The notes under the pieces were generated by a model. That model saw only the letters and a list, made by a program, of their open reading frames with translations, was not told the DNA's origin and did not search any database. Below are positions 10,135 to 63,698 of a DNA stretch of 64,000 nt, one piece after another. Both the position numbers and the translations under genes were made by a program. The stretch spans positions 1-64,000 of IMG/VR virus record IMGVR_UViG_2724679538_000004, one strand, 5' to 3'. The DNA is from a virus. Lineage: Duplodnaviria > Heunggongvirae > Uroviricota > Caudoviricetes. Each line of letters starts with the position of its first letter. The first letter of the stretch is position 1.

Positions 10135-10149
10135 GACAAAGGAAAGCAC

Positions 10150-11490
10150 ATGACCGAACTTTGCCATACAGGACGCGGTTTGTCAGAGGAGTTTGACGAT
10201 GACTTCCAGAACAGACTTGCGGCTTATTATTGTCGCGATCATGAGTTCTTGACTCGTGCAGGAGACCTTGTAGCGCCTAATCAATTTGAAAATGCAGCCA
10301 ATGCCATACTGGTAAATATGGTTTCTGGCTATTACCGGATGTACAAAAGCGCACCGTCGTCTTCTGCAATTCTGGATATGCTTAAGCGTGCGAAACGCGA
10401 TAAGACCATCCGCGAAGAACTCTTCGCCGACGTTGTTGCGGCGTTTAAGCGCATCCTTGCAGAGAAGCTGTCTGATACCTCGTACATGGTTGACCAGGTA
10501 TCGACTTTTGCAAAAAGCGTGGCGTTTGATGAAGCTCTGATTAAGGCTGCTGAGCTGAAAGAAAAGGGTGACTTTCAGGGGGCTATGGCAATCATGGCTA
10601 AAGTTCAGCAGATCGGATCGAACGAAGCGACCGGAATCTATGATTATTACACCTCAGCAAGTGAGCGGTTGAAAGCACGTGAATATGAGGCTTCAGCGGA
10701 GTATGTGCCAAACAGCATTACTACTGGACTGCCGCTGCTTGACAGGTTGCTGTACCAAAAAGGCTGGGCAAAGCGAGAAATGGTCCTCTTCATGGGATTC
10801 GCTAAGTCCGGTAAATCGACCGCAATGGGTGAGTTTTCCATTAACGCAACGCTCGCAGGCCACAATGTTCTGTATCTTTCGCTGGAGGTTCACACCACCA
10901 TTTTAGCCGACCGTTTCGATGCGAGGTTGTCGGAAACTGAAATGTCCAAGCTGGTGGAACGGCGCGATGATGTTCATCGTAAGTTGGCAGAGTTGGGAGC
11001 CACAAAGGGGATTGGCAGCTTATGGGTTGTTGAACGCCCATCAGGAAGTATGTCACCGGCAGATTTGGACCGTATGCTTAACAGCATGAAAGCCAATGGC
11101 ATGGTGCCTGACATGGTTGTCGTCGACTACGCAGATCTGATGCGTGCCAGCTATGACCTGCGTGATGATCGCGCCAACATACGTAGTATCTATACCGATT
11201 TACGTGCGCTCTATGACAAGCATAACGTTGCTGGCATCACTGCGTCACAGACAAACCGTGAGGGTGGGGCGTCAGAAGTGGCTACTATGATGCACGCTGC
11301 TGATAACATTGAAAAAGTTCGTATTGCCGACCTTGTTATCACCATCAACAAAACAGAAGAGGAAGAAGCGAAAGGCGAAGCTCGTCTCTACTTTGCTGGT
11401 TCGCGTAACCAGCAAGGTGGCATCAGTATTCGCGTTAAGCAAAACCTTGAACAAATGCGCTTTATCGAGCGCATTATGGACGTCACCTAA
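10150..11490 (+). CDS. DnaB-like replicative DNA helicase
   Basis: Walker A GFAKSGKST, RecA-like C-terminal domain with arginine-finger region; RBS AAAGGAAAGCAC. Confidence 0.8.
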   Translation: MTELCHTGRGLSEEFDDDFQNRLAAYYCRDHEFLTRAGDLVAPNQFENAANAILVNMVSGYYRMYKSAPSSSAILDMLKRAKRDKTIREELFADVVAAFKRILAEKLSDTSYMVDQVSTFAKSVAFDEALIKAAELKEKGDFQGAMAIMAKVQQIGSNEATGIYDYYTSASERLKAREYEASAEYVPNSITTGLPLLDRLLYQKGWAKREMVLFMGFAKSGKSTAMGEFSINATLAGHNVLYLSLEVHTTILADRFDARLSETEMSKLVERRDDVHRKLAELGATKGIGSLWVVERPSGSMSPADLDRMLNSMKANGMVPDMVVVDYADLMRASYDLRDDRANIRSIYTDLRALYDKHNVAGITASQTNREGGASEVATMMHAADNIEKVRIADLVITINKTEEEEAKGEARLYFAGSRNQQGGISIRVKQNLEQMRFIERIMDVT

Positions 11491-11495
11491 AAAAA

Positions 11496-11527
11496 AGCGT
11501 GGAGAAAGCCCTCCACGCTTGATTTCA
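11496..11527 (+). terminator. rho-independent terminator
   Basis: Hairpin AGCGTGGAG-aaagcc-CTCCACGCT followed by T-rich tract. Confidence 0.55.
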
Positions 11528-11572
11528 TTGAAGAAACTAACTTTCTTTTGCCAAACCACAAAAGAAAAACAC

Positions 11573-12754
11573 ATGAGCCTCTATGTTATATCAACACCGA
11601 GGCTGGTCACAATATTGCCTGTTAAAAGTGAAATTGTCGTGAGTGAGCTGAGAGAACTTATTTCAGAACTGGATTTCGAACAGTGGTTAGATACTGAGGG
11701 CATTATCTATCGGCGTGGCGGTGTAAGTGCCAAAGGGCGTGAGGTAAATATTAAAGAGTGCCCTGTATGTGGAAGTACTAACTGGAAGGTTTATTTCAAT
11801 CTTAACAATGGGGTAGGTAAATGTTTTGCTGGCGACCATCCAGAAGAAATTCAGTTTAACAAGCTGGTATTCCTTAAGCACTACAGCGGTAAATCACGCA
11901 GAGACTTTGAGGAATATGTCCAGAACGCGCTGCTTTCGCAGGGATGGGCACCGAAGAAAGAAGAGATTGTACTTGTCAGCGAAGTCGAGTTAGAAGGACC
12001 AGTCGCTCTCCCTCGTCATTACGAACTTCCCATAGATGGTCGTTTGCCTGACTATTTGGTCGAACGCCACATTACACCAGAGATGGCACGGTACTTCGAT
12101 CTCCGATACTGCGTGGAAGGCAAACACGCTTATGTTGATCCCTATACAGATCAAGTGAAAGGTCAGGTATTTGATATGAGAATCCTGATACCTGTATACG
12201 ATCTAGATGGCGTGATGAAAACGTTTCAGGGGCGAGATATCACTGGAGAAGCTGAACGACGTTATCTATTCCCAATGCAATTACCAGCTTCCGGCAAATT
12301 CCTTTACAACGGCCACAATGCAGTAGGCAAACAGACTGTCGTTGTATGCGAAGGCGCATTCGACGTTATGGGCGTCAAACGTGCCATCTTTTCCGAAGAG
12401 ACTTTGCGCGAGTACGTAGAGCCAATTGGAACGTTCGGGATGCATTTATCTGGGACCACTACGCAAGATGCAGAAGACCAGCTTGGGGCATTCCTGACTT
12501 TAAAGGCGAGCGGATTACGTAATGTGATCATGATGTGGGACAGCGAAAAGCAAGCGATACGTAACACGATGTCTGCGGCAAGGCGGCTAACAAGCATTGG
12601 TCTGAATGTGAAAGTCGCCTGTCTTGGAGAAGAAGGACTCGACCCCGGCGATGCAACGCCGGAGCAGATCATCAAAGCCTACTATCGCGCCAAACCGTAT
12701 ACCAAACAGTTAGAACTGTTAAGCAAGATCAAAGGCATAGCGGCATTAGTTTGA
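11573..12754 (+). CDS. DNA primase (zinc ribbon + TOPRIM)
   Basis: CPVCGSTNW..CFAGDH zinc-binding motif; TOPRIM-like VVVCEGAFD and MMWDSEKQ; start chosen at ATG 11573 with conserved AAAAGAAAAACAC leader. Confidence 0.75.
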   Translation: MSLYVISTPRLVTILPVKSEIVVSELRELISELDFEQWLDTEGIIYRRGGVSAKGREVNIKECPVCGSTNWKVYFNLNNGVGKCFAGDHPEEIQFNKLVFLKHYSGKSRRDFEEYVQNALLSQGWAPKKEEIVLVSEVELEGPVALPRHYELPIDGRLPDYLVERHITPEMARYFDLRYCVEGKHAYVDPYTDQVKGQVFDMRILIPVYDLDGVMKTFQGRDITGEAERRYLFPMQLPASGKFLYNGHNAVGKQTVVVCEGAFDVMGVKRAIFSEETLREYVEPIGTFGMHLSGTTTQDAEDQLGAFLTLKASGLRNVIMMWDSEKQAIRNTMSAARRLTSIGLNVKVACLGEEGLDPGDATPEQIIKAYYRAKPYTKQLELLSKIKGIAALV

Positions 12755-13891: not shown

Positions 13892-14123
13892 ATTTTTTGT
13901 TCTGTTGATATAGGATGAACAGTTTAGACGCGGCAAGCGTCAAGTTTGCGAAAAGAGTACTTAAATTTAGTTATTCTGTCAGCTTTGTTAATATAGTTTA
14001 TGGTTGGTAAAGTTAATAGATAACTAATAACTATAAGAAATAATGAGTTGTTCAATTATTGTGATACAACTCGTGTTTTGGTTAACTAATACCTACGATA
14101 AATATAAATTAAGGAAAGTCAAA

Positions 14124-14537: not shown

Positions 14538-14600
14538 TTGGAATGCCGGGCATATCTTATGCCTGGCTTCTTCGCATAGGAAACTATTTCGCCTGGCTTT

Positions 14601-14620
14601 ATAAGTAGATACTTACTTAC
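14601..14620. repeat. motif A copy
   Basis: ATAAGTAGATACTTACTTAC. Confidence 0.6.
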
Positions 14621-15522: not shown

Positions 15523-15984
15523 ATGGGCGAGAGAATAAAACTATCAAAAATCCCTTCAATTTCAGGCAATAATGGTTATTCGCTTCGTTGCAAAGAGGTA
15601 CAGATAAACGGCAATGACGCGTACTGTAGTTACACAGTCTGCCAGCACACCATTTTGGCATACAAAGAAAATCGCCTTCCTGCCCATTCTTTTAAGTCAT
15701 GTGCAACTGCCATTAAAGCAGGCAAATGCAGTGCGCTCAAAATGATGGTGGAGGAGATTCGTAAGGCGGAATCTATTTATTTTATTGATATGACCGGGCT
15801 GATCCGGGAGGTAGAAAACACCAACAAAAACAAAGCTGCGATCATCCGTAAACGTGACACCGTAACCATTAGCAAGCTGGTTAAGCGTTCTCTAAAGACT
15901 GATGCTGGAACGCCGGAATCTCAAGCGCCGATCTCAGATGTTTATTCGGCGCTCATGGAAGAAGTAACAAAAGAAAACACATGA
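15523..15984 (+). CDS. hypothetical Cys-rich protein
   Basis: 153-aa ORF, several Cys in N-terminal half. Confidence 0.4.
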   Translation: MGERIKLSKIPSISGNNGYSLRCKEVQINGNDAYCSYTVCQHTILAYKENRLPAHSFKSCATAIKAGKCSALKMMVEEIRKAESIYFIDMTGLIREVENTNKNKAAIIRKRDTVTISKLVKRSLKTDAGTPESQAPISDVYSALMEEVTKENT

Positions 15985-16012
15985 ATACCGATCAACCTGT
16001 GGAGGTAAAACA

Positions 16013-17335
16013 ATGGAAAAGTTGATCGCTCTTAAGCACAAACTAGATGAGATGAAGCCAATGGGCACTAACGCCAAGAAAGAGGCGTTGGCCAGTTTGG
16101 ATGACTTTGAGCAGAGCATGGTCTCGCTAATGCTAAACCCATTCATTCGATTCGGTGTGAAGAAGTACAAAGTGGCCGAGCCTCTCGATACTTCCGTACC
16201 TGGCGACCAGAATGTAGTAGAGCTGCTGGAGAAGCTGGCCGCACGCGAACTGACCGGAAACGCGGCCATTACTGCTGTCGAATCACTCGTTGCCTTAATG
16301 TGCGCTGACGGGCAGGACGTGTTTCGTCGCTTCCTGCTGAAAGATCCGAAAGCCGGTGTTGGCATTAGTCTTTGCAACAAGGTTTTTAAAAATCCAATTC
16401 CCAAGTTCGAGGTCCAACTGGCGTCTCCGTATAAGGAGAAAGGCGACAAATACCCATTCAAACCAAATCCAAAGGCTAAGTGGCCGATGATTGGCAGTCT
16501 TAAGCTCGATGGTTTGCGAGTAATTTGTGAGGTTATTGTTGACGAGGAAGAGGTTAACTTCCTTTCTCGTACCGGTAATCCAATTACGTCTCTCGATCAC
16601 CTTAAGCCAGCCATGCTCGAATTAGGCAAACTTTCAGGCCACAAACACATCTTCTTCGATGGTGAAGGAACAGCAGGTTCATTTAACCAGTCCGTATCTG
16701 CATTGCGTAAGAAGAACGTGCAGGCAATTGGCGCAATTTATCATGTTTTCGACTTCTTCCTGCCGGAATGGCGAACACAGGCTAAATCTAAAGAGTATGC
16801 GAAGACAGGTATGAAGCTGAAAGAGCGCCTGGCTATGTTAGTGGCGTTGTTCAAAAACGATCGCAACGAAGTTTACGCACAAGACATACACCTACATCCG
16901 TTCTACATCATCCATAGCCACGAAGACTTCATCGAACGCTTCATGAAACGCCTGGACGATAACGAAGAAGGGGAGATGGGTAAAGATCCGAACTCTGTTT
17001 ACGAGTTTAAACGTACCCGCAGCTGGTGGAAGTTAAAAGACGAAGATTCAGAAGATGGTGAAATTATCGATTTTGAGCCGGGCGACCCGGACTCTGGTTT
17101 TGCCAACACGCTCGGAAAAATTGTTATTCGTCTTGAAAACGGTGTGATTGTTCGTGCAAGCGGCATTAAGCATAAATATCTGGACGAGATCTGGAACAAC
17201 AAAGAGAAGTACCGCGGTCGTATTGTCGAAGTTCATTGTCACGAGAAAACGCCGGATGGCAGCTTACGCCACCCGCGACTTAAATGGCCGCGTTGCTTAC
17301 GCGATACCGAGGACCGAATTGGGGATAAAGAATGA
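16013..17335 (+). CDS. ATP-dependent DNA ligase
   Basis: Adenylation motif I KLDGLR (GSLKLDGLRVI); GGAGG RBS. Confidence 0.75.
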   Translation: MEKLIALKHKLDEMKPMGTNAKKEALASLDDFEQSMVSLMLNPFIRFGVKKYKVAEPLDTSVPGDQNVVELLEKLAARELTGNAAITAVESLVALMCADGQDVFRRFLLKDPKAGVGISLCNKVFKNPIPKFEVQLASPYKEKGDKYPFKPNPKAKWPMIGSLKLDGLRVICEVIVDEEEVNFLSRTGNPITSLDHLKPAMLELGKLSGHKHIFFDGEGTAGSFNQSVSALRKKNVQAIGAIYHVFDFFLPEWRTQAKSKEYAKTGMKLKERLAMLVALFKNDRNEVYAQDIHLHPFYIIHSHEDFIERFMKRLDDNEEGEMGKDPNSVYEFKRTRSWWKLKDEDSEDGEIIDFEPGDPDSGFANTLGKIVIRLENGVIVRASGIKHKYLDEIWNNKEKYRGRIVEVHCHEKTPDGSLRHPRLKWPRCLRDTEDRIGDKE

Positions 17336-17859: not shown

Positions 17860-18161
17860 GCAATCTAACTTCTTGGGAATGGTGGCTGGTAAGCTATTTT
17901 GTGGCTGCCGGAGTCGGATTTGCCTTTTACGTAGGTCTGTTAGTCGTAAAACTACTACTGATTAGATTTGCTAGTCATAAACGTATTGACGATGGTCTGT
18001 GGCGTCTGGGGTCTCTTGTTGAGATTCACTACGGCCAACTTAAGGAGAACGAAACTATCACTATACAAGCGAAACGATTTACCGCCACAATCACGAGGAC
18101 TCCTGATCAGAAAGGCGCTTTGATCAAAAAAGTTGCAACTAAAACTCTTGCTGAAAAATAA
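17856..18161 (+). CDS. membrane protein
   Basis: 101 aa, ATGA overlap; TM segment WWLVSYFVAAGVGFAFYVGLLVV. Confidence 0.5.
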   Translation: MSNLTSWEWWLVSYFVAAGVGFAFYVGLLVVKLLLIRFASHKRIDDGLWRLGSLVEIHYGQLKENETITIQAKRFTATITRTPDQKGALIKKVATKTLAEK

Positions 18162-18178
18162 GTATTTACTTACTTATT
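18157..18178. repeat. motif A copy
   Basis: AATAAGTATTTACTTACTTATT overlapping stop codon. Confidence 0.6.
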
Positions 18179-18922: not shown

Positions 18923-18997
18923 GATGGTGTAGCTCAGCGGTAGAGCAGTTGGCTGTTAACCAACTGGTCGGTGGTTCGAATCCACCCACCATCGCCA
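18923..18997 (+). tRNA. tRNA-Asn (anticodon GTT)
   Basis: Hand-folded cloverleaf: acceptor GATGGTG/CACCATC, D-stem GCTC/GAGC, anticodon loop CTGTTAA, T-arm GGTGG-TTCGAAT-CCACC, encoded CCA. Confidence 0.85.
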
Positions 18998-19002
18998 ATT
19001 TA

Positions 19003-19089
19003 GGGGAGTTAGTCCGTAGAGGTAGCGGTGTAGACTGTAAATCTACTGTCATTGCGACTCGGGTGGTTCGACTCCATCACTCCCCACCA
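19003..19089 (+). tRNA. tRNA-Tyr (anticodon GTA), long variable arm
   Basis: Acceptor GGGGAGT/ACTCCCC, anticodon arm GTAGA-CTGTAAA-TCTAC, T-loop GGTTCGACTCC, encoded CCA. Confidence 0.75.
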
Positions 19090-19093
19090 AATT

Positions 19094-19169
19094 GCCGGTT
19101 TAGCTCAGTTGGTAGAGCAGTCGCTTTGTAAGCGAATGGCCAGCGGTTCAAGTCCGTTAACCGGCACCA
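19094..19169 (+). tRNA. tRNA-Thr (anticodon TGT)
   Basis: Acceptor GCCGGTT/AACCGGC, D-arm TAGCTCAGTTGGTAGAGC, anticodon loop TTTGTAA, T-loop TTCAAGT, encoded CCA. Confidence 0.75.
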
Positions 19170-28867: not shown

Positions 28868-31800
28868 ATGAAGGCACTGATGGTTAGAACTGACTTTTCA
28901 CTTGGAGAGTCAGCTCTAAAAGCAGAAAACGCGGTGAAGATTGCCAGAGAAGCTGGCTACACCGCTGTAATTTCAGCAGATAGCATGAACATTGCGAGTG
29001 TTATTCCACTACAACGCGCCGCTGGTGACGACATGGCGGTAATTTGTGGTGTGAAACTAAACATTGTTGATGATCCCACATACGAGCACCGGGCTAAACT
29101 TGCTAAAGAGTCTATGGGATGTATGGAATCATTAGAGCGTGGGCGGAACTACTCGTTTACCGCACTAATTAAAAATGAGCAGGGATATCGCGACATCTGC
29201 GAACTAATGACGGTGGCAAACACACGAGAACAGTTCTACTTTGTGCCCCGTCTCTCGCTCGATCAGTTGGTTTCTACATATGCCAAAGGCAACATCATCC
29301 TGCTCACTTCCGACATCGGTAGCGTGTTCCAACGCAACGATTTTGCAAAAATCATAAGCTCACTGATTACAGCGGGTGGAAAAGACAACTTCTATAGTGT
29401 GGTTTATCCGCACCCTACCCCATTCTACGACCAGATTAACGTCCGGGCGATGAAAGTCGCCAGCGCACTGAAAATAGAGCCAGTGGCGTTCTATCCCGCT
29501 TATTACGAATCGATCGACGATGCAGACATTAAAGACATTGCGCACATGGTTACGAACAACATCAAAATCGACCAGCCGCATCGTCTGCGTATTCCCCACC
29601 AGCGAGATAACGCCGTCAATGGTCGCCGCCATCTCCTTGAGGCTCTTAAAGCCTTCTCCGTTCGCATGGATGTGCCGGTGACAGCTTCAATGGCCTCCAC
29701 GACACAGGACGCCATTATCGAAGCCTGCACGTGGCGCTGGCATGAATTGCCACCAGCACTTCCTAAGATGGCGGACGACGAGCCTGTAACTCTGATGAAG
29801 CTGGCTGTTGCGGGGCTGCGCAAACGTCTTACTACAAAAGAGTTTGGTTATACACCACCGGCTTCTGAGCACCGAGTGTATGTTGATCGCCTTAAGTACG
29901 AAATGGACACGCTGACCCGCCTGGGATTTTGTGGTTACTTCCTGATGGTACGCGATCTGATGAATCACAGCCGTGAAACAGGCATTCCTGTCGGGCCTGG
30001 TCGTGGTTCCTCTGCTGGTTCTCTGGTGGCATGGTGCATAGGCATAACCAACGTCGATCCTATCCGTCACGGTCTTCTGTTTGAGCGTTTCATCAACCCT
30101 GAGCGTCTCGACTTACCGGATGCGGATCTGGATTTCAGCCAGGCTCGTCGTCATGAGGTGATCGAGTATCTGAATGAGCGCTATGGCGAAGATTACGTTG
30201 CCGGCATTCCAAACTTCACCTATCTGGGCGCGGCATCTGCGCTGCGTGACACTGCACGTATTTACGGTGTCGATGCTGCGGATATGGCGGTATCCAAAGA
30301 GTTCAAGAATCTGGAGGACGATAGTCTGTCGCTGGAAGAGCTGCGCGAGCAACTGGCTAGCCTGGACAAATACGCCACGAAAAACCCGGAAGCATTCAAA
30401 GCGGCGTGTAAGTTGCAAAGCCTGATGCGTGGTTTTGGTCGTCACGCTGCGGGGATGATCGTCGCTGGCGTTCCATTAGTAGAGCGCACGCCCGTCGAGC
30501 TGCGTGGCAATGCTCGATGTATTGCGTTCGATAAACGTTACTGCGAGGCGATGGGGCTGATTAAGTTGGACGTTCTCGGTCTGGCAACGCTCGATCTTCT
30601 GGATAGCGCGAAACGCTACATCAAAGAGAGTACCGGGGAAGACATCAATCTCGACGCTATCCCACTGGACGATCGCAAGGTTCTGGATGGGTTCGCTGCA
30701 GGGTACACGCAGGGCGTATTCCAGCTGGAGTCCGGCCCCATGCGTAAGCTGCTTAAAGATCTGGGCGGTGGCATCGAGCCAATGAGCTTCAAAACCGTTG
30801 TCGCCACGACCGCCCTCTTCCGACCTGGACCGATTCAATCCGGCATGTTGGATGACTATGTTTCCGTTGCGAAAGGATTTATGACGCCTACATCGCTACA
30901 TCCTGTCTTGGATGAACTGACCTCTGAAACAAATGGAGTGATTCTCTATCAGGAACAAACGATGAACGCAACAAGGCTTCTTGCTGGTTTCACAATGGCC
31001 GAGGCGGATGGTGTGCGTTCAGCAATCGGTAAGAAGAACATGGAAAAGATGAGGAGCATGGGTGAGAAATTTGTCATTCAGGCTCAAGCTGGGTGGATCG
31101 ACGTAGAGCTTGAAAATGGCGCAATACAACGGATTCATCGCGCAGAACATTTTAAATGCGAGGACGGTACTCTGAGGACAGTTGAAGAGGCGTTGGAGCA
31201 TGGAGTGAAGCTGCCCATGCCAGTTGTGCGCGTTACAACGTCACATCCAGGTCTGTCTGAGACGAAGGCAAAAGAGATATGGACTGCATTTGAGAAAAAC
31301 GGAGCCTATCAGTTCAATAAATCACACTCAGTTGCTTATTCTTTAATCAGTTATCAGTCTATGTGGCTAAAGACGCACTACCCTGCTGAGTTCTTCGCAG
31401 CTGCGCTCACCATTCTGGGCGAGGATAAGCATCAGGGGCTGGTGAAGGATGCGCTGACCTATGGCATTCGCGTATTGCCACCAGACGTTAATGTGTCATC
31501 TAACCGAATTGAGATCCGCACACTCGAAGACGGCAGTCAGGCACTGTATGCGCCATTCTCTGCTGTTAAAGGTTGTTCTGAAAATGGTTGTCAGGCAATT
31601 ATGCGTGCGCGTGAGAAAGTTGGTGGCAAATTCGAGTCAGTGGCACAATTCGATGAAGCGGTCGAGAAGCGTGCATGTAACAGTCGTGTACGCGAGTCGC
31701 TTCATAAAGTAGGGGCTTTTGCGTCAATTGAGTCAGGCAGTCTGCCAGCAACTGATCCTGAACGACTGCGCGACCAGGCTGAGCTGATGGGCAATCTCGT

Positions 31801-32418: not shown

Positions 32419-32689
32419 AGAATTATGGCGCTTGTTGAGGAAGTCACTCCTCTTACGCACTTTGTTTTGCCATGCCGGCAGTTAGCTTCTGCCTTTGACT
32501 ATTCATGCGGCAACCCCGCATTTCGCCACAATGGGCAATTCACTTTAATGGAATAAACTGGCCGTTGTGTCGATTTAATTAGCATGGCCTTACCATGCTA
32601 ATTTATTCAACTTGTACAATCCTACAAATCTATCCACTCAGGCTTACACCGTCTTCGTTATTGTAGAAATGAGGATCATCAGCGTTGAA

Positions 32690-32905
32690 TCAGCTTAGAG
32701 CAACGACATTTGCTGCTGCTGGGCCTTTAGCCCCATTCTCGATAGAGAATTCGACCTGCTGGCCTTCTTCCAAAGTGCGGAAATTATTACTCTGAATTGC
32801 CGAAAAATGTACAAAAACATCTTTACTGCCATCAGCAGGAGAAATAAAGCCAAAGCCTTTATCAGAGTTAAACCATTTTACTAAACCAGTCATTTTATTA
32901 GACAT
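32690..32905 (-). CDS. cspA: cold-shock protein (CspA family)
   Basis: [38 protein letters not shown] near-identical in pattern to E. coli CspA; long untranslated leader upstream. Confidence 0.85.
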
Positions 32906-33234
32906 AGATATTACCTTCTTAATTTTGTGAGCCACATAGTGCGGCGAGAATTTGATCTGTATAGATTGGGACTTACTTAGGCACTTAAGGAGGAGACTCA
33001 CGAAGAAGGGAAATCAGAAGATAACACTGAACTGAGACTGCTTTACTAAAACTGCTTACATAAGGTCTGTCTTGCAAACCAACGATGCTATTAACGCATA
33101 CCCTTTCTTTTCATGCAACCTTTATTTTTCAAAGATAACTAATTTTTGTCACCGTTGGTTTAGTAAACGTTAACGAACCAGACGATGACAGACACCTTTA
33201 CAGAGAACAGATGCCCGCCAATTGGCGGGCATCA

Positions 33235-34805: not shown

Positions 34806-34885
34806 TTTTCGCGCTCGTGAGAGCCACGATGAAACCAACGCCCAAAGCGCTTAGCGCCATTGGCCAAAATCACAACAAGGAGAAA

Positions 34886-35890
34886 CACATGTCAAAGTCA
34901 TTGCTTGATTTGCTTAACAAAACTCGTGAAGACATTGCCGCCAAACGTGGCAATAAAGTTGATTTAACTCGTTTAAAAGATGGTAACAACTACATTCGTA
35001 TCTTCCCGAATAAAGACGACCCAAACGGTAAGTTCTTCCAGACTTTCGGTATGCACTACGTTAAGTATCAGAACGAGGAAGGTAAAGAAGCAACCAACGC
35101 TTATATTTGTGAGCAACATACTCACGGTCGCGCTTGTCAGCTATGCGAAATGGTGATGGAAGGTCGCGCTCGTCACAAGGGTAACAAAGCAATGGAAGAA
35201 CGCATCGGTCAAATGCGTGCTACTCCTCGCTACCTGGTAAACGGCATTCTTTCAGCTCGTGAGGATTTCGCCGATGCAGAGAAATGCCAGTTAATCGAAC
35301 TGCCGTCAACTGTATTCGATGATATCTGCAAAGCAATCACCGAAGACATCGCTGACGATATCGGCAATCCACTTAGCAAAGAGGAAGGCTACGCATTCCT
35401 GATTAAGCGTACAGGGTCTAATCGTGACACCAAATATGATGTTTCACCGAAGCGGAAAGTCTTCAAAGGCGACATCGAGGATAAATTCTGGAACACCCAA
35501 CATGATCTGATCGCATACGCAAATCAGGCTGACGAAACTCGCCTTCTGTCGACTGTTCGCACTATGGGACGTCTGATTGGTATCGCAGCACCAGCCACCG
35601 CAGCATCTGCGCCAGCCATTGCATCCACGGCAAAAGCCTCTACTGCTGCATTACCAGGATTCGGCTCTGTAACTGGTCATACGGAAGGATCAGCTACTGT
35701 AGCCACCGCTCACACTCCAAAATCCGAACCTACCAGCCTGGTAGAAGAGGAAGTCATGCGTGCAGCTGAGGCTGAGTTTAAACCAGAAACCAGCGCAGTA
35801 TCTGCGGCCGTAACAGCAAGCGAAGCCGCTGAGTCTGTGCAGGAAGACGAAGGTCTGGATGACCTACTGAGAGAACTGGACTCTCTGTAA
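34886..35890 (+). CDS. gp32-like single-stranded DNA-binding protein
   Basis: IRIFPNKDD and His/Cys cluster (HTHGRACQLC) recalling T4 gp32 zinc site; acidic C-terminal tail EDEGLDDLLRELDSL. Confidence 0.5.
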   Translation, partial: HMSKSLLDLLNKTREDIAAKRGNKVDLTRLKDGNNYIRIFPNKDDPNGKFFQTFGMHYVKYQNEEGKEATNAYICEQHTHGRACQLCEMVMEGRARHKGNKAMEERIGQMRATPRYLVNGILSAREDFADAEKCQLIELPSTVFDDICKAITEDIADDIGNPLSKEEGYAFLIKRTGSNRDTKYDVSPKRKVFKGDIEDKFWNTQHDLIAYANQADETRLLSTVRTMGRLIGIAAPATAASAPAIASTAKASTAALPGFGSVTGHTEGSATVATAHTPKSEPTSLVEEEVMRAAEAEFKPETSAVSAAVTASEAAESVQEDEGLDDLLRELDSL

Positions 35891-38282: not shown

Positions 38283-38298
38283 ATAAGTACTTACTTAT
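38283..38298. repeat. motif A copy
   Basis: ATAAGTACTTACTTAT. Confidence 0.6.
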
Positions 38299-38330
38299 TA
38301 TTAGCACACAATAACCACATAGGAAAACAC

Positions 38331-38531
38331 ATGATCAAACTCTATCTTATGGCAGTAGTTACAGGTCTATCTGTAGTTTTCATCTACTGTTTGCTGGTTC
38401 CGTCGCTGATCTCTGCTAAAAGCGACATTGCCGTAATGCTTGGAATCATCGTTGCTTTTGGTGCTCCTGTGATCGGGTTTATTGCAGGTCGTAAGTTTCT
38501 AAAGTCACTCATCAATTCGAAGGAGAAGTAA
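38331..38531 (+). CDS. small two-TM membrane protein (NfeD-like partner?)
   Basis: 66 aa, two hydrophobic helices; 4 bp upstream of SPFH gene. Confidence 0.45.
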   Translation: MIKLYLMAVVTGLSVVFIYCLLVPSLISAKSDIAVMLGIIVAFGAPVIGFIAGRKFLKSLINSKEK

Positions 38532-39428: not shown

Positions 39429-39448
39429 AGAAAACAATTTGTTTAAAA
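39429..39448. promoter_or_regulatory. motif B element
   Basis: AGAAAACAATTTGTTTAAAA. Confidence 0.5.
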
Positions 39449-39921: not shown

Positions 39922-39941
39922 AAATCACAAAAGGAAAGCAC

Positions 39942-40217
39942 ATGAAAACTCTGGTTCAAATTTCAGCAAGTTTAGGCTGCGCTACTCACCCAATGTTCAT
40001 CTTGAACTGCGAAGGTCTTGATGAAGGAGAGATTGACGCACTTGTCGACCGTATTCTCATTGAATACACGGGGCATGATGCGAGTAATGTTTTTGTTGAT
40101 AGTAACGGTGTCTACAGATGTAACAGTGATTGCTGGTATAGAGAAGACGTTAAAAACATTAGCGATGAAGATGCAGAGCACCTGGAGCGCATTCTTGGCA
40201 TTCCTACATTGAAGTAA
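39942..40217 (+). CDS. hypothetical protein
   Basis: 91 aa; AAAGGAAAGCACATG initiation region. Confidence 0.45.
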   Translation: MKTLVQISASLGCATHPMFILNCEGLDEGEIDALVDRILIEYTGHDASNVFVDSNGVYRCNSDCWYREDVKNISDEDAEHLERILGIPTLK

Positions 40218-43268: not shown

Positions 43269-43913
43269 ATGGATCTAAAACGCACGCGCTGGGTTCGTCG
43301 TCTTGAGGACGGCTCCTACACCATCGAATCAAATTCCAACCTGAATAAGCAGAAGTTACTTTGTGATATCTGCGGTATAGCAGCGAAGTGCCCGATCTAC
43401 GAAACCAGAATTAAACTTGATAAGGCTGGTGTGAACTTTCATTTGAATAGTTGTATCAGGTACGTTCCATTGCTCGCATTTCGTAAACCGATCATCGGAT
43501 TGGATGCGCCCTACTTCAACACACTCCGTTCAGGAGTAACGTGGCGAGATCGTTTATCACCAGACAAACTGATTTGCCTTGTATCCGCAGATACAGGAAA
43601 AATCATCCGTTTTGGGAAAGTAGACAAGGTTTACTCAGGCCCAGTTGACGAGATGTTGCGGAAACACAGCCGGTTTAATCACCTCTGCATGGGTGGTGAG
43701 AAAATCGAGAAAGTTGAAGAAGTGATCCGCAAATCCTACGGACACTTCCTGACCAAAGATAGCCTGCTCACTGCAATCTACATCAGACATGTAAAACGTG
43801 AGTTCGACCTTGAATACCATAGCGAAGAAGAACTGAACCTTGTCGATCCACGTCCTAAAGCTGGCGTCATAAACATAAACGCAGCGCGTAAAAAGCCCAC
43901 TGACGCACTGTAA
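43269..43913 (+). CDS. hypothetical protein
   Basis: 214-aa ORF. Confidence 0.45.
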   Translation: MDLKRTRWVRRLEDGSYTIESNSNLNKQKLLCDICGIAAKCPIYETRIKLDKAGVNFHLNSCIRYVPLLAFRKPIIGLDAPYFNTLRSGVTWRDRLSPDKLICLVSADTGKIIRFGKVDKVYSGPVDEMLRKHSRFNHLCMGGEKIEKVEEVIRKSYGHFLTKDSLLTAIYIRHVKREFDLEYHSEEELNLVDPRPKAGVININAARKKPTDAL

Positions 43914-44057: not shown

Positions 44058-44167
44058 ATCTTGTATATTAAGGCGCTCGTTTCATTCCTAACATACCGTT
44101 ATGCATAGTTGTTTACCTTCTTATTACTCTTAAAATTTGTATCAAAATAACCACAAAGGAAAAACAC

Positions 44168-45253
44168 ATGACTTTGCCATACGGCGTCATTTCTGACTGC
44201 CACTACCACAAATGGGATGCGTTCTCCACGACGAACGCTGAGGGGCTTAACTCCAGACTTGAAATACAGTTGGAAGCAACGAAAGAAGCAGCCATCGCCA
44301 TGAAGAAGGCCGGTTGTAAGTACATGTTGGTTGCCGGTGATACATTTCACGTCCGAGGAACTGTGTCCCCTTCTGTTCTGCATTACGTAACTGAAACGTA
44401 CAAGTGGATTATCAATGAGCTTGATTTGACAGTAGTAATGCTGGCCGGTAATCACGATCTTGAAACTAACGATTCAGTATATAGCGCCAACGCAGCGGCA
44501 TCGCTGAGTTCTATCGGCGTGGTAATCGTATGTGGCAAGCGCCCACACTCAATCAAAATCGGTGATGTCACTGTTCATCTGATTAGCTGGCGTAACAATC
44601 ATGCGGAGCTTATCAGCGATCTGAAAGCATTACGCAAAAGCGTAGAAGGCGACAACCACGACGTGGTTATCCATACATCCATTAACAAAGCCATTCCAAC
44701 AATGCCTGACGTCGGTATCGACGCGCAGGAGCTAAAGGATATCGGTTTTCGTCTTGTACTTAGTGGGCATTACCACAATCACAAAGAAGTCATTCCTGGA
44801 GTTATCAGTGTCGGTGCACTGACTCATCAGAATTGGGGAGATGTTGGATCTCTGGCGGGATATATGATCGTAAACCCAGACGGCAGTTTCAGTCACTACG
44901 AAACCAGTGCGCCTAAATTCATTAACCTGGAAGATGATGTTGCTGATGACCAGATTCGCGGCAACTACGTGCGCTTCCGTGCCGTAATCGAGAACGACGA
45001 GGAAGGCATTAAGTACCAGAATATCCTCAAAACAATGGGTGCGAAAGGTGTTGTGTGCAACTTCATCCGTAAATCATCAATGATGGAAGGTACAGCCAGC
45101 ACAACTGAAACCAGCAAAATTGATAGCCTGGGAGAGTCTGTATCTGCTTACTGCAAAATTGTTCACGATACTGACGGTGGTTTTGAACTAAGCAAGCTGG
45201 ACACCTTGTGTCAGGAGATCCTTACCGAAGCTGAGAGTTCGGAGACCGTATGA
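44168..45253 (+). CDS. SbcD/Mre11-like nuclease (calcineurin-like phosphoesterase)
   Basis: Metallophosphatase motifs SDCHYH, VAGDTFH, LAGNHD, GHYH. Confidence 0.8.
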   Translation: MTLPYGVISDCHYHKWDAFSTTNAEGLNSRLEIQLEATKEAAIAMKKAGCKYMLVAGDTFHVRGTVSPSVLHYVTETYKWIINELDLTVVMLAGNHDLETNDSVYSANAAASLSSIGVVIVCGKRPHSIKIGDVTVHLISWRNNHAELISDLKALRKSVEGDNHDVVIHTSINKAIPTMPDVGIDAQELKDIGFRLVLSGHYHNHKEVIPGVISVGALTHQNWGDVGSLAGYMIVNPDGSFSHYETSAPKFINLEDDVADDQIRGNYVRFRAVIENDEEGIKYQNILKTMGAKGVVCNFIRKSSMMEGTASTTETSKIDSLGESVSAYCKIVHDTDGGFELSKLDTLCQEILTEAESSETV

Positions 45254-51140: not shown

Positions 51141-51160
51141 AGATAACAACTTGTTTAAAC
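51141..51160. promoter_or_regulatory. motif B element (plus half-copy at 51124-51137)
   Basis: AGATAACAACTTGTTTAAAC. Confidence 0.5.
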
Positions 51161-51186
51161 ACACCAAAAAGCAAAAGGAAAAACAC

Positions 51187-52329
51187 ATGTCATATTCAAC
51201 GTTCCGTTTGGGTGCTAATGATGCAACCAAAGAGCCTATGTTCCTCGGACAATCTGTCAACGTGGCACGTTACGATCAGCAAAAGTACCGTGATTTTGAA
51301 AAGTTGATTGAACGTCAATTGTCTTTCTTCTGGCGGCCAGAAGAAGTTGATATTTCAAGCGATCGCATCGACTTCAATACGAAGCTGCGGGACCACGAAC
51401 GTCACATTTTCCTGAGTAATCTCCGTTATCAAACGTTACTCGATTCAGTTCAGGGACGTAGCCCAAATGCAACGCTGCTGCCGCTTATCTCTATCCCTGA
51501 ACTGGAAACGTGGATTGAAACGTGGTCTTTCTCTGAGACTATCCATAGCCGCAGCTACACCCACATTATTCGTGGCATGGTGGATGACCCTAGCATTGTT
51601 TTTGACGGTATTGTTACGGATGAAGAAATCATCAACCGAGCGATCAGTATCTCTGCTGAATATGACAGGCTTTATGGGATGACCTGCGATCGCCAGTCGT
51701 TAGGTGAGAAGGAATTTGAGCGTCTGTACGTAAATGAATATGGCTGGGAGCCATACCCTTTGCAACGTCAGCTTTTCCGCACGTTGGTGTCTATTAATGC
51801 GCTTGAGGCGATCCGTTTCTACGTAAGTTTTGCATGTACGTTTGCCTTTGGCGAACGGAAGTTGCTTGAGGGTAACACCAAAATTATGCGCTTTATTGCC
51901 CGTGATGAAGCTCTGCATTGCGAGGGAACAGAACGTATGATCCGCTTCATGCGTACAGGTCGCGAAGGTTTATTGTGGAAAGAGATTGCTGCTGATGAAG
52001 AAAATGTCATTTACGACACCATGAAATCAGTCGCCGAACAAGAAATGAACTGGGCAGACTATCTCTTCAAAGATGGCTCAATGATTGGTTTAAACGCAGA
52101 GATTCTCAAAAGCTACGTAAAGTACCGCACCAATCTGGCTATGAATCGTCTTGGCCTTAAGGCGTTATTCCCAGAAGTTACCAGTGATCCGCTGGTCTGG
52201 ATGAATAAGTGGCTATTGACCGACACACTGCAAATCGCACCACAAGAGGCAGAGCAAAGCACATATCTGGTAGGTCAGATCGATTCTACCGTAGACAAAG
52301 CCTCACTGAGTCAGTTCGCGGACCTGTAA
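51187..52329 (+). CDS. nrdB: ribonucleotide reductase small subunit (NrdB)
   Basis: Di-iron/tyrosyl radical protein pattern ([24 protein letters not shown]); follows nrdA. Confidence 0.85.
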
Positions 52330-58404: not shown

Positions 58405-58425
58405 AATAGGTAAGTAGTTACCTAT
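58405..58425. repeat. motif A copy
   Basis: AATAGGTAAGTAGTTACCTAT. Confidence 0.75.
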
Positions 58426-58438
58426 ACGGAGTGATTCA

Positions 58439-59032: not shown

Positions 59033-59214
59033 GTTCTGTCTGGGAGTGTTCTTGGACCTGCTTCTGTATAAATAAATACATACTAATATATTAATATACA
59101 GATGCAGGTTTTTTGTAGCAAACGTGCCAGACCTTGACAACATCCCAGAACCCACTAGAAACCCTCCCCAGACGCTCTAGAATCAATTTTGAGTAGCAAA
59201 GTAAGGAAACACAC

Positions 59215-59445
59215 ATGGTCTATCAAACAAACGTTGTAGCGCTCGTTGAGAGCGATTTTCTAGCCCAGGCGCGTGAAATGCTTAAAGATCGCGAGCGGGC
59301 GTTTAATTTGTATGAATGGGCACTCAAATGCCTACATCTTGGCGAGCATAAAGAACTTGTTGAACAGCTGTTAGGTGAGTTGATTAATGAGGTGTTTGCC
59401 TTAAACGTCCAGCTACATGGGCGAGAAAGTAACCAACCCCAATAA
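59215..59445 (+). CDS. hypothetical protein
   Basis: 76 aa; AAGGAAACACACATG initiation region. Confidence 0.4.
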   Translation: MVYQTNVVALVESDFLAQAREMLKDRERAFNLYEWALKCLHLGEHKELVEQLLGELINEVFALNVQLHGRESNQPQ

Positions 59446-59464
59446 TAGATAAGTACCTACTATT
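59444..59464. repeat. motif A copy
   Basis: AATAGATAAGTACCTACTATT. Confidence 0.65.
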
Positions 59465-60044: not shown

Positions 60045-60641
60045 ATGACGACGAAGACACCAGCCCGATCGCAAGCAAAAACTCTCAAAAAAGCCAAAAA
60101 CAAAAATTCTCCCCGCACCAATCACACAACGCCTGTCGTAGAGTTCAATCCCCAGCTTAAAACCGTGAAAATCTTTAGTGATGGCTCTTGCCTTAAAAAT
60201 CCGGGTGGTCCTGGCGGTTACGGTATCGTTCTCCAGTATCGTGGTGAGGAACGCGAGTTCTCAGATGGTTTTCATAGCACCACTAATAACCGCATGGAGA
60301 TGATGGGCGCACTCATCGGGCTGGAGCGTTTGAAATATCCATGCAACGTTATTTTGTACTCTGATAGCCAGTATCTGAAAAACGGCATGACACAGTGGAT
60401 GAAATGGTGGAAACGAAATGGATGGATGACTTCTGATAAAAAACCGGTAAAGAATGTTGATCTGTGGAAGCGTCTGGATGAGGCCGCAAGTCGACATAAT
60501 GTTCGCTGGAAGTGGGTTAAAGGCCATGCGGGACATCGTGAAAACGAGATCTGTGATCGTCTTGCTAAGATTGCAGCATTCACTGCCGCTGATACTCCAT
60601 TTAAAAAAGATTTAGGTTTTTTGAATCAAAATAGTAAGTAA
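60045..60641 (+). CDS. rnhA: ribonuclease H (RNase HI)
   Basis: [41 protein letters not shown] motifs; N-terminal basic extension; start set at ATG 60045 after CAGGAG. Confidence 0.85.
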
Positions 60642-60655
60642 GTATTTACCTATTA
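60630..60655. repeat. motif A copy
   Basis: AATAGTAAGTAAGTATTTACCTATTA overlapping RNase H stop. Confidence 0.65.
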
Positions 60656-60783
60656 TTTAGATTAAGGTATTCTGATCACCGTCAGGATGACAATGTGTCG
60701 GTGAGACACAGTTCCAGGATGGAACGGGAAAGGCGGCTGGTTAATGCCAGCCGCAACTCTTTCTGACACTGGATGGAGTCCTA

Positions 60784-61281: not shown

Positions 61282-61294
61282 GGCTGTTGCATGA
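61079..61294 (+). CDS. small secreted protein
   Basis: Signal peptide MAYALILLSLATVAVPA; RBS AGAGG. Confidence 0.4.
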   Translation: MAYALILLSLATVAVPAGQSLLMQDSSTTRQPTTISTAPVERPVSLDGMSVDAIPQVHPVTLDHAAIKAVA

Positions 61295-61479
61295 ACTGGC
61301 TTTCAAATCACTTTGGAAAAATTTGGCTGGTTATTGTGGCTCTCATGGCCGCAGGTTGGGTGTCAAACATTGTAAAACTCGTTTGCTCTGGGGATCTCCA
61401 GTTTCAGGCTGGAATGACTCTGGCTCGTGTAGTTGGGATTTTTATGTTTCCAGTCGGTTCGGTGCTTGGCTATTTCTAA
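61291..61479 (+). CDS. small membrane protein
   Basis: 62 aa, ATGA overlap; two hydrophobic helices. Confidence 0.4.
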   Translation: MNWLSNHFGKIWLVIVALMAAGWVSNIVKLVCSGDLQFQAGMTLARVVGIFMFPVGSVLGYF

Positions 61480-61538
61480 TGCGTGTCGGAGTTGAGGCTT
61501 TAGAAGCCATAGTTCATGTAATTCTGTTTACTTCACTT

Positions 61539-61558
61539 AGAAAACAACTTGTTTTGAC
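61539..61558. promoter_or_regulatory. motif B element
   Basis: AGAAAACAACTTGTTTTGAC. Confidence 0.5.
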
Positions 61559-61580
61559 AAATAACATATAGGAAAAACAC

Positions 61581-62006
61581 ATGTTAGGTTTCTTTAAAAA
61601 GAAAACTCGTAAAGCTGTTATCGAAGTCAAAAAAATGGAGAACCGTGATGCGGTTGAAGCCACTGTGTGGGGCGCGTATATGATCTCCTATTCCGATGGC
61701 ACATGCGATGCAAAAGAAATTTCCATTCTTGAGAAAACAATTGCAGCTCTGCCTGCGTTTTCTCCGTTTGCTGCTGAGATAGCCCAGATGAGTGCCAATA
61801 TCCGCGCTCAATACGAAGCCTCACCACGCCGAGCTAATGCTCAAGCTTTACGTGAACTGGCTGATGTGGCCGGGACTAATGATGCAGTAGATGTTCTGTG
61901 TCTGTGTATTGATATTGCCGATCAGGACGGTATTGGCGAGGAGGAAGAGTTGGTGTTGAAAAAAATCGCTCAGGCGCTCCAGCTTTCACTGGATGCTTAT
62001 CTCTAA
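61581..62006 (+). CDS. TerB-like domain protein
   Basis: Two ADG/DQDG...E motifs (YSDGTCDAKEISILEK, ADQDGIGEEEELVLKK) typical of TerB-like fold. Confidence 0.4.
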   Translation: MLGFFKKKTRKAVIEVKKMENRDAVEATVWGAYMISYSDGTCDAKEISILEKTIAALPAFSPFAAEIAQMSANIRAQYEASPRRANAQALRELADVAGTNDAVDVLCLCIDIADQDGIGEEEELVLKKIAQALQLSLDAYL

Positions 62007-62164
62007 TGCTTGAGAGATTCCGGCTTGTGATCGTCATTGCTCTTTTGGTGATGGCGGTGCTGGTGGATTTTACGGGAAAGATCATGTCTGTCATTTCTGA
62101 TGGCGTTCTTGTTGGTCTGGCGATCTACTTCGCTCGCCCTCTAATCCGTAATGCAAAGTGTTAA
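62006..62164 (+). CDS. small membrane protein (52 aa)
   Basis: ATG overlaps upstream stop; hydrophobic LVIVIALLVMAVLV; below ORF-track cutoff. Confidence 0.35.
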   Translation: MLERFRLVIVIALLVMAVLVDFTGKIMSVISDGVLVGLAIYFARPLIRNAKC

Positions 62165-62179
62165 TAACAAGGGCCGACT

Positions 62180-63022
62180 ATGGCCCTTTTGTTTCATGGA
62201 GCGCGTATGTTTGAGATTTCAACACTCACTTCTACTACCAAAGGTTTTCACGATAAGCCTTCAATGACCAGTCAGGAGATTGCCGAGTTGGTTGGCAGTC
62301 GTCACGACAGCGTTAAACGCACCATAGAACGGCTGGTAAAAACTGGCGTCATTACTTTTCCACCAATGGTGGAAAAGCCCACCGCAGGTCGCCCTTCGAC
62401 GATGTACCTGTTTGAAGGCGATCAGGGCAAACGAGACAGCATTGTCGTAGTTGCGCAGCTGTCGCCGGAATTTACGGCACGTTTAGTTGATCGCTGGAGA
62501 GAGTTGGAGTCCATATATGGCGCAGCTGTGACTCCAGCGATACCTCGTACCTACAAAGAAGCTCTTGTTCATTTGCTTCATCAGGTTGAAGAAAACGAGC
62601 GCCTTGAAAAGAAAAATGAGGCTTTGGAAGTAGCGCTGTCAAATGCAAAGCCAAAAGCCATTCTGATGGATACGATTTGCGGAACCGCAAATGAACTTTA
62701 CGGGCTTAATGAAGCTGGGCGCATTCTCGGTACATCTGGTGTTGTTATGGGGGAATTTCTGGATTCTCTTGGCGACGTTTATGTAAAGCGCAAATACACA
62801 ACTATCAATCGTCAGTTCTTGAAGGCTTTCATTGACCGTGGCTATGGGAAAAATGTCGTGATCGGAACTGGACGTAACCAGGCAAAATTCACCTTTAAGG
62901 GGCTTTGCTTTGCGGCTGTGAAGCTGATTGCCGCAGGAAAAATAACCGTCAACTCCATCGAATATGAACCGTGCCGGGAACATGTTGAGCGTGAATTGAA
63001 GGGCGCAAAAAGTCTTCATTGA
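62180..63022 (+). CDS. Rha-family phage regulatory protein / antirepressor
   Basis: MTSQEIAELVGSRHDSVKRTIERL matches Rha N-terminal motif; true start may be internal. Confidence 0.55.
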   Translation: MALLFHGARMFEISTLTSTTKGFHDKPSMTSQEIAELVGSRHDSVKRTIERLVKTGVITFPPMVEKPTAGRPSTMYLFEGDQGKRDSIVVVAQLSPEFTARLVDRWRELESIYGAAVTPAIPRTYKEALVHLLHQVEENERLEKKNEALEVALSNAKPKAILMDTICGTANELYGLNEAGRILGTSGVVMGEFLDSLGDVYVKRKYTTINRQFLKAFIDRGYGKNVVIGTGRNQAKFTFKGLCFAAVKLIAAGKITVNSIEYEPCREHVERELKGAKSLH

Positions 63023-63093
63023 TTTTCAACGTGGACACTCACCTTTTCATTGCGATTGTTCCCCTCTCCTAATCAGACACAATAAAGCCAATA

Positions 63094-63113
63094 AGAAAAC
63101 AACTTGTTTAATC
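63094..63113. promoter_or_regulatory. motif B element
   Basis: AGAAAACAACTTGTTTAATC. Confidence 0.5.
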
Positions 63114-63128
63114 ATCAAGGAAAAACAC

Positions 63129-63698
63129 ATGTGCGAGAAATGCAAAGCGATAGCTGATGAACAAAATGCCCTATTTGAAGAAATGGGTGCTAATGAGCTG
63201 GTAAAAATGTTAGCCATTCTTCGGGGAATAGAAGACGTTTCCATATTTGAGAGAGTGCTAACAGCACATAGTTTTAAGTCTACCTTTGAAGAGCCAATTC
63301 AGGTTGTCGCTTTGGCGCACCATTTTGGTGTTCATTATCTTGCTGAAAAAGAGCGAGCTAAAAAGTTGCAGGCGACTTTGGATATGGTGAGCGAGCCTCA
63401 ACGAACTCATGACGATAACAAGAGTGAGACGATTATTGCTGACAAAGATCGTGAAATTGCCGGACTCAAATCCTCTCTAACAATGTTGATGTCCGCAATG
63501 AACCTGGTGTCATCTCAGGCTGGCTTAAAAATGCCATCACTAAATAGCTATGATCCGATGGCAGTGCGCCAGCTGCTTGGTGCAATGGCTGATCAGCTTG
63601 ACGACACGAAAAATCGTATTGAAGATATGATGCGGGAACTTAGTCATCGTCATAATCTGACAACTCAGCCACATAAAGCTTTTCAAGTATCACATTAA
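63129..63698 (+). CDS. hypothetical protein
   Basis: 189 aa; N-terminal CEKC; AAGGAAAAACACATG initiation region. Confidence 0.45.
   Translation: MCEKCKAIADEQNALFEEMGANELVKMLAILRGIEDVSIFERVLTAHSFKSTFEEPIQVVALAHHFGVHYLAEKERAKKLQATLDMVSEPQRTHDDNKSETIIADKDREIAGLKSSLTMLMSAMNLVSSQAGLKMPSLNSYDPMAVRQLLGAMADQLDDTKNRIEDMMRELSHRHNLTTQPHKAFQVSH

Follow-up and report, generated by a model that had tools for sequence, protein, structure and literature searches.

In phage T4, about 30 early and middle mRNAs have binding sites for the 122-amino-acid (aa) protein RegA; these sites are unstructured, have a 5' A-tract and adjoin or overlap the AUG (PMC3014915). A sequence of comparable position recurs in a 64,000-nucleotide (nt) stretch of DNA, positions 1 to 64,000 of the virus record IMGVR_UViG_2724679538_000004 (the window), which belongs to an SSU5-like phage-plasmid of E. 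coli. Roughly a sixth of the genes in the window start with a near-identical, A/C-rich sequence of 20 bases ending in AAA(A/G)CAC-ATG, termed here the cassette, and the carriers are replication, recombination, nucleotide-metabolism or small accessory genes only. The uniformity of the cassette is far beyond the needs of a ribosome-binding site and points to shared translational control. No earlier description of a start-site cassette in SSU5-like elements was found in the searchable literature, and the literature searched contains no mention of operators or translation initiation region (TIR) motifs of these elements, whose regulation is essentially undescribed; the cassette is best classed as resembling a regulon-wide TIR or operator of the RegA type.

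Like the RegA operators of T4 and RB69, the cassette is a short unstructured A-tract site located at the AUG of many DNA-metabolism genes (PMC3014915), and the gene content of this phage-plasmid is itself T4-like, including gp32, UvsY and gp46/47-like (SbcCD) proteins. RegA sites are, however, A+U-rich and poorly conserved (e.g., AAAAUUAUG), whereas the cassette is A/C-rich and nearly invariant (AAARCAC-AUG); moreover, no RegA homologue was detected in the window, in 50 kb of the related phage Cyrano or in 100 kb of SSU5. The sites of T4 RegB/S1 (GG*AGRAYARAA) likewise combine an extended Shine-Dalgarno (SD) sequence with an A-rich 3' motif on an early class of mRNAs and are longer than ribosome binding requires, but the cassette core is AAGGA(A)n, not GGAG, and no RegB-like Pfam family appeared among the 30 open reading frames (ORFs) scanned. 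In E. coli, flow-seq analysis indicates that oligo-A at -7..-4 is the best spacer and that cytidines are unfavourable there, in a library whose -3..-1 triplet was fixed as CAU (PMC7264876). The cassette shares AAAA at -7..-4 with this optimum, but the optimum includes no preference for CAC, and highly expressed host genes lack the cassette.

Direct repression in TIRs is also exerted by Hfq/Crc, at AAnAAnAA or (ARN)n sites, and by CsrA, at A(N)GGA sites. The cassette similarly places AAGGA and two or three A-R-N triplets in a row within the TIR, but these systems do not account for the invariant CAC, some cassettes have no GG, and no phage csrA or hfq was found. In terms of CsrA binding, most sites have a single AAGGA, and the logo, which extends from -90 to +15, shows no further conserved GGA. 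The C4 antisense RNA of P1 immI, which according to the annotation of the P1 record exerts post-transcriptional control at a ribosome-binding site, offers a further parallel in a phage-plasmid. In contrast to that system, RNAs complementary to the cassette in the window, SSU5 and a Klebsiella relative are limited to the antisense strands of the sites themselves.

The window covers 64 kb of a genome of ~108 kb. Compared with Escherichia phage Cyrano, which is phage-plasmid pLF82 from E. coli LF82, it shows 91% identity across 20 kb; identity to Salmonella phage SSU5 is ~82%, and Klebsiella phage-plasmids are more distant. The Klebsiella relative used for comparison is plasmid pCAVP366-109 (NZ_CP145150.1, annotated by the Prokaryotic Genome Annotation Pipeline, PGAP), whose helicase is 68% identical. 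Nearly all genes of the window lie on the + strand. According to the annotations of Cyrano and SSU5, tail-fibre and lysis genes are followed by partition and toxin-antitoxin genes, and afterwards, in one long block, by T4-like genes for replication, recombination and nucleotide metabolism.

An earlier note on this DNA had listed 12 starts bearing the pattern ..AAGGAAA(A/G)CAC-ATG. The pattern is present at 12/12 of these starts, with one correction of position: 34886 is the C of CAC in front of the SSB gene, and the ATG is at 34889. Two sites beyond that list, at 15981 (+) and at 6927 (minus strand), were added; the latter, in front of an antitoxin gene, is a weaker match and may be of chance origin. 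The sites in the window are as follows.

10134..10152, + strand: helicase cassette, ACAAAGGAAAGCAC-ATG; DnaB-like helicase, ATG 10150
11557..11575, + strand: primase-leader cassette, SD-less, CACAAAAGAAAAACAC-ATG; ATG 11573
15965..16025 including the upstream ORF (uORF), + strand: ligase-leader cassette, SD-less, ACAAAAGAAAACAC-ATG; ATG 15981
27436..27454, + strand: CobS-like / MoxR ATPase cassette, ACAAAAGGAAAGCAC-ATG
28852..28870, + strand: DnaE cassette, AGAAAGGTAAAAACAC-ATG; within the 3' end of the 65-aa ORF 28690-28887
34873..34891, + strand: SSB cassette, ACAACAAGGAGAAACAC-ATG; gp32-like SSB, ATG 34889
38315..38333, + strand: cassette of a 66-aa membrane protein, CCACATAGGAAAACAC-ATG
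39926..39944, + strand: cassette of a 91-aa protein of unknown function, CACAAAAGGAAAGCAC-ATG
44152..44170, + strand: SbcD cassette, CCACAAAGGAAAAACAC-ATG
51171..51189, + strand: NrdB cassette, GCAAAAGGAAAAACAC-ATG
59199..59217, + strand: cassette of a 76-aa protein of unknown function, AGTAAGGAAACACAC-ATG
61565..61583, + strand: cassette of a TerB-domain protein, CATATAGGAAAAACAC-ATG
63113..63131, + strand: cassette of a 189-aa protein of unknown function, ATCAAGGAAAAACAC-ATG
6925..6943, - strand: partial version at an antitoxin gene, CAGGGGGAACAC-ATG (read as GGGGGAACAC-ATG); start 6927

Several lines of evidence indicate that this recurrence is not a product of chance. The 14-mer AAGGAAARCACATG has six matches in the window with one mismatch or none, all on the + strand, where 0.09 are expected. 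CACATG occurs in 17 copies on the + strand, 12 of which are the listed gene starts and a 13th (15981) the start of a short uORF. CAC occupies -3..-1 at 13/74 window starts versus 0.65% of non-start ATGs (binomial P=2.8e-15). As the choice of starts made in this analysis could be biased, the count was repeated on annotations from other sources, where CAC ranks first among the triplets at -3..-1 both in SSU5 RefSeq (12/125 starts) and in the PGAP annotation of the Klebsiella relative (18/112 starts).

For sequence logos, 311 annotated starts were pooled and divided into a CAC class (n=43), chosen on -3..-1 only, and the remainder (n=268). The CAC class contains 0.95-1.47 bits at -7..-4 (A A A R), positions that lie outside the selection, and about 1 bit at -12..-8 (the SD), and is A-rich back to -20, whereas the other starts show a generic SD of 0.2-0.4 bits and a spacer of at most 0.11 bits. 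Among A/C-only triplets at -3..-1, CAC accounts for 43/96. The first base of the second codon (+4) is G or C at 1/43 CAC-class starts versus 81/268 others. When 50 cassette sites are aligned, unannotated ones included, information is close to zero from -90 to -22. The proposal that the spacer is conserved, and not the SD alone, is thereby confirmed, as the CAC class does not have the pattern of a generic SD with a random spacer. An exact scan of IMG/VR with the 14-mer was uninformative; among the matches listed, there were scattered single ones in unrelated contigs.

In mRNA, the cassette spans ~20-24 nt, roughly (A/U)AA-C/A-rich-AAGGA-A(3-6)-(A/G)CAC-AUG-(A/U), in which the A-run, (A/G)CAC, AUG and the following W constitute the fixed part. 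CAC is always at -3..-1. The spacing between the final G of the SD and the ATG is 5-10 nt (mode 7), with the length of the A-run (AAACAC to AAAAAACAC) as the source of the variation. This variation excludes a rigid site spanning SD to AUG. Four of the 43 CAC-class sites lack any GG; those in the window, ..CAAAAGAAAAACAC-ATG (11573) and ..AAAAGAAAACAC-ATG (15981), both head short ORFs, not main genes. Among the window sites, only 34889 (AAGGAGAAACAC) contains GGAG, and the others have AAGGAAA, AGGTAAA or no GG.

Variation upstream of the helicase gene is instructive in this respect. Among 80 related IMG/VR loci, 32 variants of this region are present, in which AAAGGA and CAC-ATG are kept amid free divergence of the far-upstream sequence and of the linker that separates a palindrome from the SD; in the variant AAAGGATAACAAACAC-ATG, the spacer is 4 nt longer and ACAC-ATG is retained. 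The anchor point of the cassette is the ATG and not the SD. Except at the primase and ligase leaders, the sites have the features of ordinary SD-led initiation, with a purine-rich complement of the anti-SD 5-10 nt before the ATG, and orthologue alignments start at residue 1 of the cassette-headed ORFs. By eye, the spacer shows no complementarity to the 3' end of 16S rRNA beyond AAGGA, and extended pairing was rejected on this ground. The predicted mean unpaired probability over -15..+3 is 0.63 for cassette TIRs versus 0.47 for other genes.

The cassette has been kept, gained and lost among related elements. Orthologous starts retain GGAAA..CAC-ATG in SSU5 and/or the Klebsiella relative at the genes for DnaE, SbcD, NrdB, the CobS-like ATPase, SSB, the TerB-domain protein and the 66-aa and 91-aa proteins, at which sequences further upstream are unalignable. 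The cassette has been gained in Klebsiella at RecA, an RNaseH-like gene and others; it has been lost at the SSB start of SSU5, where TAC stands instead of CAC, and, in SSU5 and Klebsiella alike, at the orthologue of the gene that begins at 59215. The statistics, the independent annotations and this gain and loss between orthologues rule out chance, shared ancestry and annotation artefact, and on these comparisons the cassette is a selected feature, not merely a descended one.

The distribution of the cassette is also restricted. A scan of GTDB by helicase alignment retrieved 11 loci, which yielded a cassette-poor lineage, L211, and distant cassette-free relatives. L211, whose helicase is 80% identical, has ordinary SDs at helicase, primase and ligase. 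An Acinetobacter relative has the cassette at 0/26 starts. It is likewise present at 0/65 starts of an E. coli K-12 region containing ribosomal-protein operons, tufA and fusA, and essentially absent from the first 50 kb of P1. The cassette is therefore specific to part of the SSU5 lineage and is not a host-wide or high-expression signature.

Within the genomes that have it, the cassette marks one class of genes. Structural and lysis genes of SSU5 have it at 0/31 starts, and those of the Klebsiella relative at a single, chance-like GTG case. An intergenic gap of 40 nt or more precedes all 12 gene-start cassettes of the window (12/42 vs 0/21, P=0.006); thirty post-gap genes have no cassette. The table of lysogen-expressed genes in the Cyrano transcriptome does not include the cassette genes (PMC9928086). 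From this absence and from gene function, the cassette genes are probably lytic early or middle genes.

The evidence indicates that the cassette functions in mRNA, separately from transcription signals. Its 3' end is ATG in 50/50 sites, and its orientation is always that of the gene. The upstream settings differ: two families of repeated palindromes (O1 and O2, see below), a sigma-70-like promoter with a terminator, or the interior of an upstream coding sequence. The terminator and sigma-70-like promoter lie directly upstream of the cassette of the 66-aa membrane protein (38315). Conversely, many O1 promoters precede genes with ordinary SDs. A promoter at a fixed distance was ruled out, as there is no information upstream of -22.

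The O1 palindrome, AGAAAACAAnTTGTTTAA, written (T)AAGAAAACAAnTTGTTTAA, is dispersed in the window independently of the cassette. It is located between a -10-like TATAAG/GATAAT and the SD, and in relatives there is often a second copy at ~-35. The window contains 7 exact and 2 near cores of the form AACA-N3-TGTT; SSU5 has 19 and the Klebsiella relative 21. O1 has the look of a repressor operator scattered over the genome, much like the C1 operators of P1. The second family, O2, ATAAGTA(N0-4)TACTTAT / TAGGTAAGTAGTTACCTA, is intergenic, stands shortly before many starts, some of them SD-less, and is also found in SSU5 and the Klebsiella relative; it probably either serves a second regulator as its site or defines a class of promoters.

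O1 copies (AACA-N3-TGTT cores): 7200-7210, 10119-10129, 25273-25283, 39433-39443, 51145-51155, 61543-61553, 63098-63108
O2 copies: 9334-9351, 14602-14619, 18159-18176, 27377-27390, 38284-38297, 58407-58424, 60635-60652
O2 half-sites: 15498, 34786, 39912, 44045

At primase and DNA ligase, the cassette heads a short leader ORF. The primase leader of the window has 22 codons (11573-11638) and runs in frame into the primase GTG at 11639, and in SSU5 and many relatives it is a separate uORF of 22-23 codons whose TGA overlaps the primase ATG. The leader peptide is partly conserved (MSLYGIQ..RLIKILP.K). The leader is preceded by a hairpin (-8.8 kcal/mol, z=-2.7), whose arms are kept and whose loop is different in the Klebsiella relative.

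11542..11567, + strand: primase-leader hairpin, UUUCUUUUG / CAAAAGAAA; pairs with the A-rich half of the cassette

The ligase uORF of the window has 14 codons (15981-16025); its ATG overlaps the TGA of the preceding gene, and the uORF itself overlaps the SD and ATG (16013) of the ligase gene. In most relatives, it has 12 codons and ends in a TAATG overlap with the ligase start. Public records set the primase start downstream of the leader (SSU5 35837 vs 35905), and NZ_CP145150.1 has a downstream ATG annotated for the CobS-like ATPase (record position 88174 vs 88186); the public starts of these two genes appear to be mis-set.

The reading that we favour, tentatively and at less than an even chance, is that the cassette is an RNA-level translational operator shared by the class, in a RegA-like manner. 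The SD and the A-run in a G/U-poor leader would provide an open and efficient loading site for the 30S subunit, and the invariant (A/G)CAC-AUG-W, which ribosome binding does not need, would be the operator of one trans-acting factor. This factor would most likely be an RNA-binding protein encoded by the phage and, like T4 RegA, in competition with the 30S subunit, and would set the translation of the whole replication, recombination and nucleotide-metabolism regulon jointly. The cassette-headed uORFs, which end on or run into the primase and ligase starts, would bring these two genes indirectly under the same control. A more explicit form is conceivable but rather doubtful: a dedicated post-transcriptional regulon in which a so far unrecognised RNA-binding regulator, without relation to RegA, would read AAARCAC-AUG-W in some 15-25 early mRNAs and gate primase and ligase via the uORFs.

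A number of observations weigh against an operator. No trans-acting factor was identified: RegA (a T4 query), CsrA, Hfq and ProQ gave no tblastn match in the window or in the Cyrano and SSU5 sequences above; Pfam searches of 30 small or uncharacterized ORFs of the window found no RegA (Translat_reg), RegB or other RNA-binding family; PHROGs returned families of unknown function only, save one membrane-protein family; and sequence searches of the PDB with four candidates were empty or noise. The window holds just 64 kb of the genome, and for RegA-type proteins the remaining ~44 kb were covered through BLAST of SSU5 only. Furthermore, the variable A-run leaves only ~10 nt fixed, and the greater predicted openness of cassette TIRs is equally expected from a purely cis-acting explanation.

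Other candidate partners were considered, of which trans-antisense RNA and a CspA homologue were rejected. An RNAduplex scan for trans-antisense RNA in the window, SSU5 and the Klebsiella plasmid gave only the antisense strands of the sites themselves, and the next matches are weak (-13 to -15 kcal/mol) with positions that are not conserved; Rfam matches were confined to tRNAs and a cspA thermoregulator, with no match to the C4 family. The latter thermoregulator (RF01766, 185.7 bits) is the 5' untranslated region of a CspA-family cold-shock gene at 32665-33083 (-), with the coding sequence at 32696-32905, whose product is 73% identical to E. coli CspA. Both the window and Cyrano encode this homologue. 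SSU5 does not, although it retains the cassette, and the protein is thus not the cognate factor. Pfam did not reproduce the label 'ASCH RNA-binding' that the Cyrano homologue of 43269-43913 bears. The basic 65-aa protein encoded at 28690-28887 (+), with an isoelectric point of 9.2, has four cysteines (C5, C19, C22 and C28) that are invariant in SSU5 and Klebsiella; it might be an accessory protein of the replisome or bind nucleic acids, but nothing ties it to RNA binding. The earlier note had suggested either a translational operator in the manner of RegA or selection for a specific initiation context, and had called for a search of the window for a small RNA-binding translational repressor candidate. 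A translation-linked, RNA-level element under selection is upheld, whereas neither a RegA-family protein, another RNA-binding candidate nor an antisense RNA was found.

The main rival, a cis-acting context without any regulator, is quite possible, although we would not call it probable. In such a case, the cassette would be the preferred strong, structure-free loading site of this lineage for first cistrons, with CAC as a frozen accident or a modest ribosomal preference, and would have spread by short-patch recombination and convergent selection. This is consistent with the lack of a detected regulator, with the more open predicted structure of cassette TIRs, with the A-run, whose length drifts like that of a homopolymer, and with the occurrence of the cassette only after gaps, where de novo initiation is needed; some cassettes within one genome, such as those of RecA and the primase leader in Klebsiella, resemble each other over ~24 nt, which is compatible with copying. 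A-runs at -7..-4 are, moreover, the experimentally best spacers in E. coli (PMC7264876), and the A-run and G/U-poor leader are thereby explained generically. The same optimum leaves unexplained the invariant CAC, W at +4, the restriction to one class and the absence of the cassette from the most strongly expressed genes: capsid, tail, host ribosomal-protein and EF-Tu genes, which are expected to be the most strongly expressed, never use it. Thirty post-gap genes of the window manage without it, and the related lineage L211 runs the same genes without it. In addition, cytidines are reported as unfavourable at -7..-4, and CAC makes up nearly half of the A/C-only triplets at -3..-1.

Two further explanations place the recognition elsewhere. 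The cassette might be the target of an endoribonuclease, through a RegB/S1-like cut or a MazF-type cut at the ACA of ACAC-AUG, that would switch the class off or trim it to near-leaderless mRNAs. RegB sites do consist of an SD with a 3' A-rich tract common to early mRNAs (PMC3014915); an ACA overlaps the AUG (A-2, C-1, A+1) in every cassette, with a second at -4..-2 in most; and the window encodes mRNA-interferase toxins, HicA (by Cyrano annotation) and YafO. But GGAG is found at about one window site only, the Pfam scan of the 30 ORFs detected no RegB-like family, an ACA cutter has no need of the invariant C at -3, and the toxin genes, which are accessory, vary among relatives, every one of which retains the cassette. 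The model in which MazF generates leaderless mRNAs is, besides, disputed. A nuclease target is improbable. Still more improbable is a DNA-level site, whether a half-operator related to the AAACAA arm of O1, a promoter element or a methylation site. The left arm of O1 with its flank, AAGAAAACAA, does resemble AAGGAAAACAC, and four window cassettes have an O1 palindrome 31-42 nt upstream; eight others have no nearby O1, however, several are inside upstream coding sequence, and no second half-site exists. The many O1 promoters before ordinary-SD genes, together with the invariable ATG end and gene-bound orientation of the cassette, also speak against recognition in DNA.

Two further features of the window concern tRNA and toxin genes. 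A cluster of four tRNA genes at 18923-19902 encodes Asn-GTT, Tyr-GTA, Thr-TGT and Ser-TGA; in the homologous region, three are annotated in Cyrano and one in SSU5. The YafO-family type II toxin is encoded at 22494-22919 (+; Pfam E=4.6e-21), and the ORF at 21955-22503, which overlaps the toxin gene from upstream, is probably its antitoxin.

SSU5-like phage-plasmids, 930 plasmid records of which were matched by the helicase query, are commonly carried by clinical E. coli, Klebsiella, Salmonella and Enterobacter, and some of them carry resistance genes (PMC9600943, PMC3999498). For these elements, the regulon-wide cassette provides a testable handle on the control of replication and recombination genes, a practical rule for correcting start-codon annotation and, in the form of the 24-mer RNA AAUAACCACAAAGGAAAACACAUGA, a defined bait for finding a regulator. 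If the cassette acts in cis only, it would be a compact natural module for a strong TIR, in which C at -3 and -1 is selected beside the spacer positions where flow-seq disfavours cytidine. If instead the more explicit reading with a regulator unrelated to RegA is true, the regulon would constitute a translational switch between plasmid maintenance and lytic replication in widespread clinical elements.

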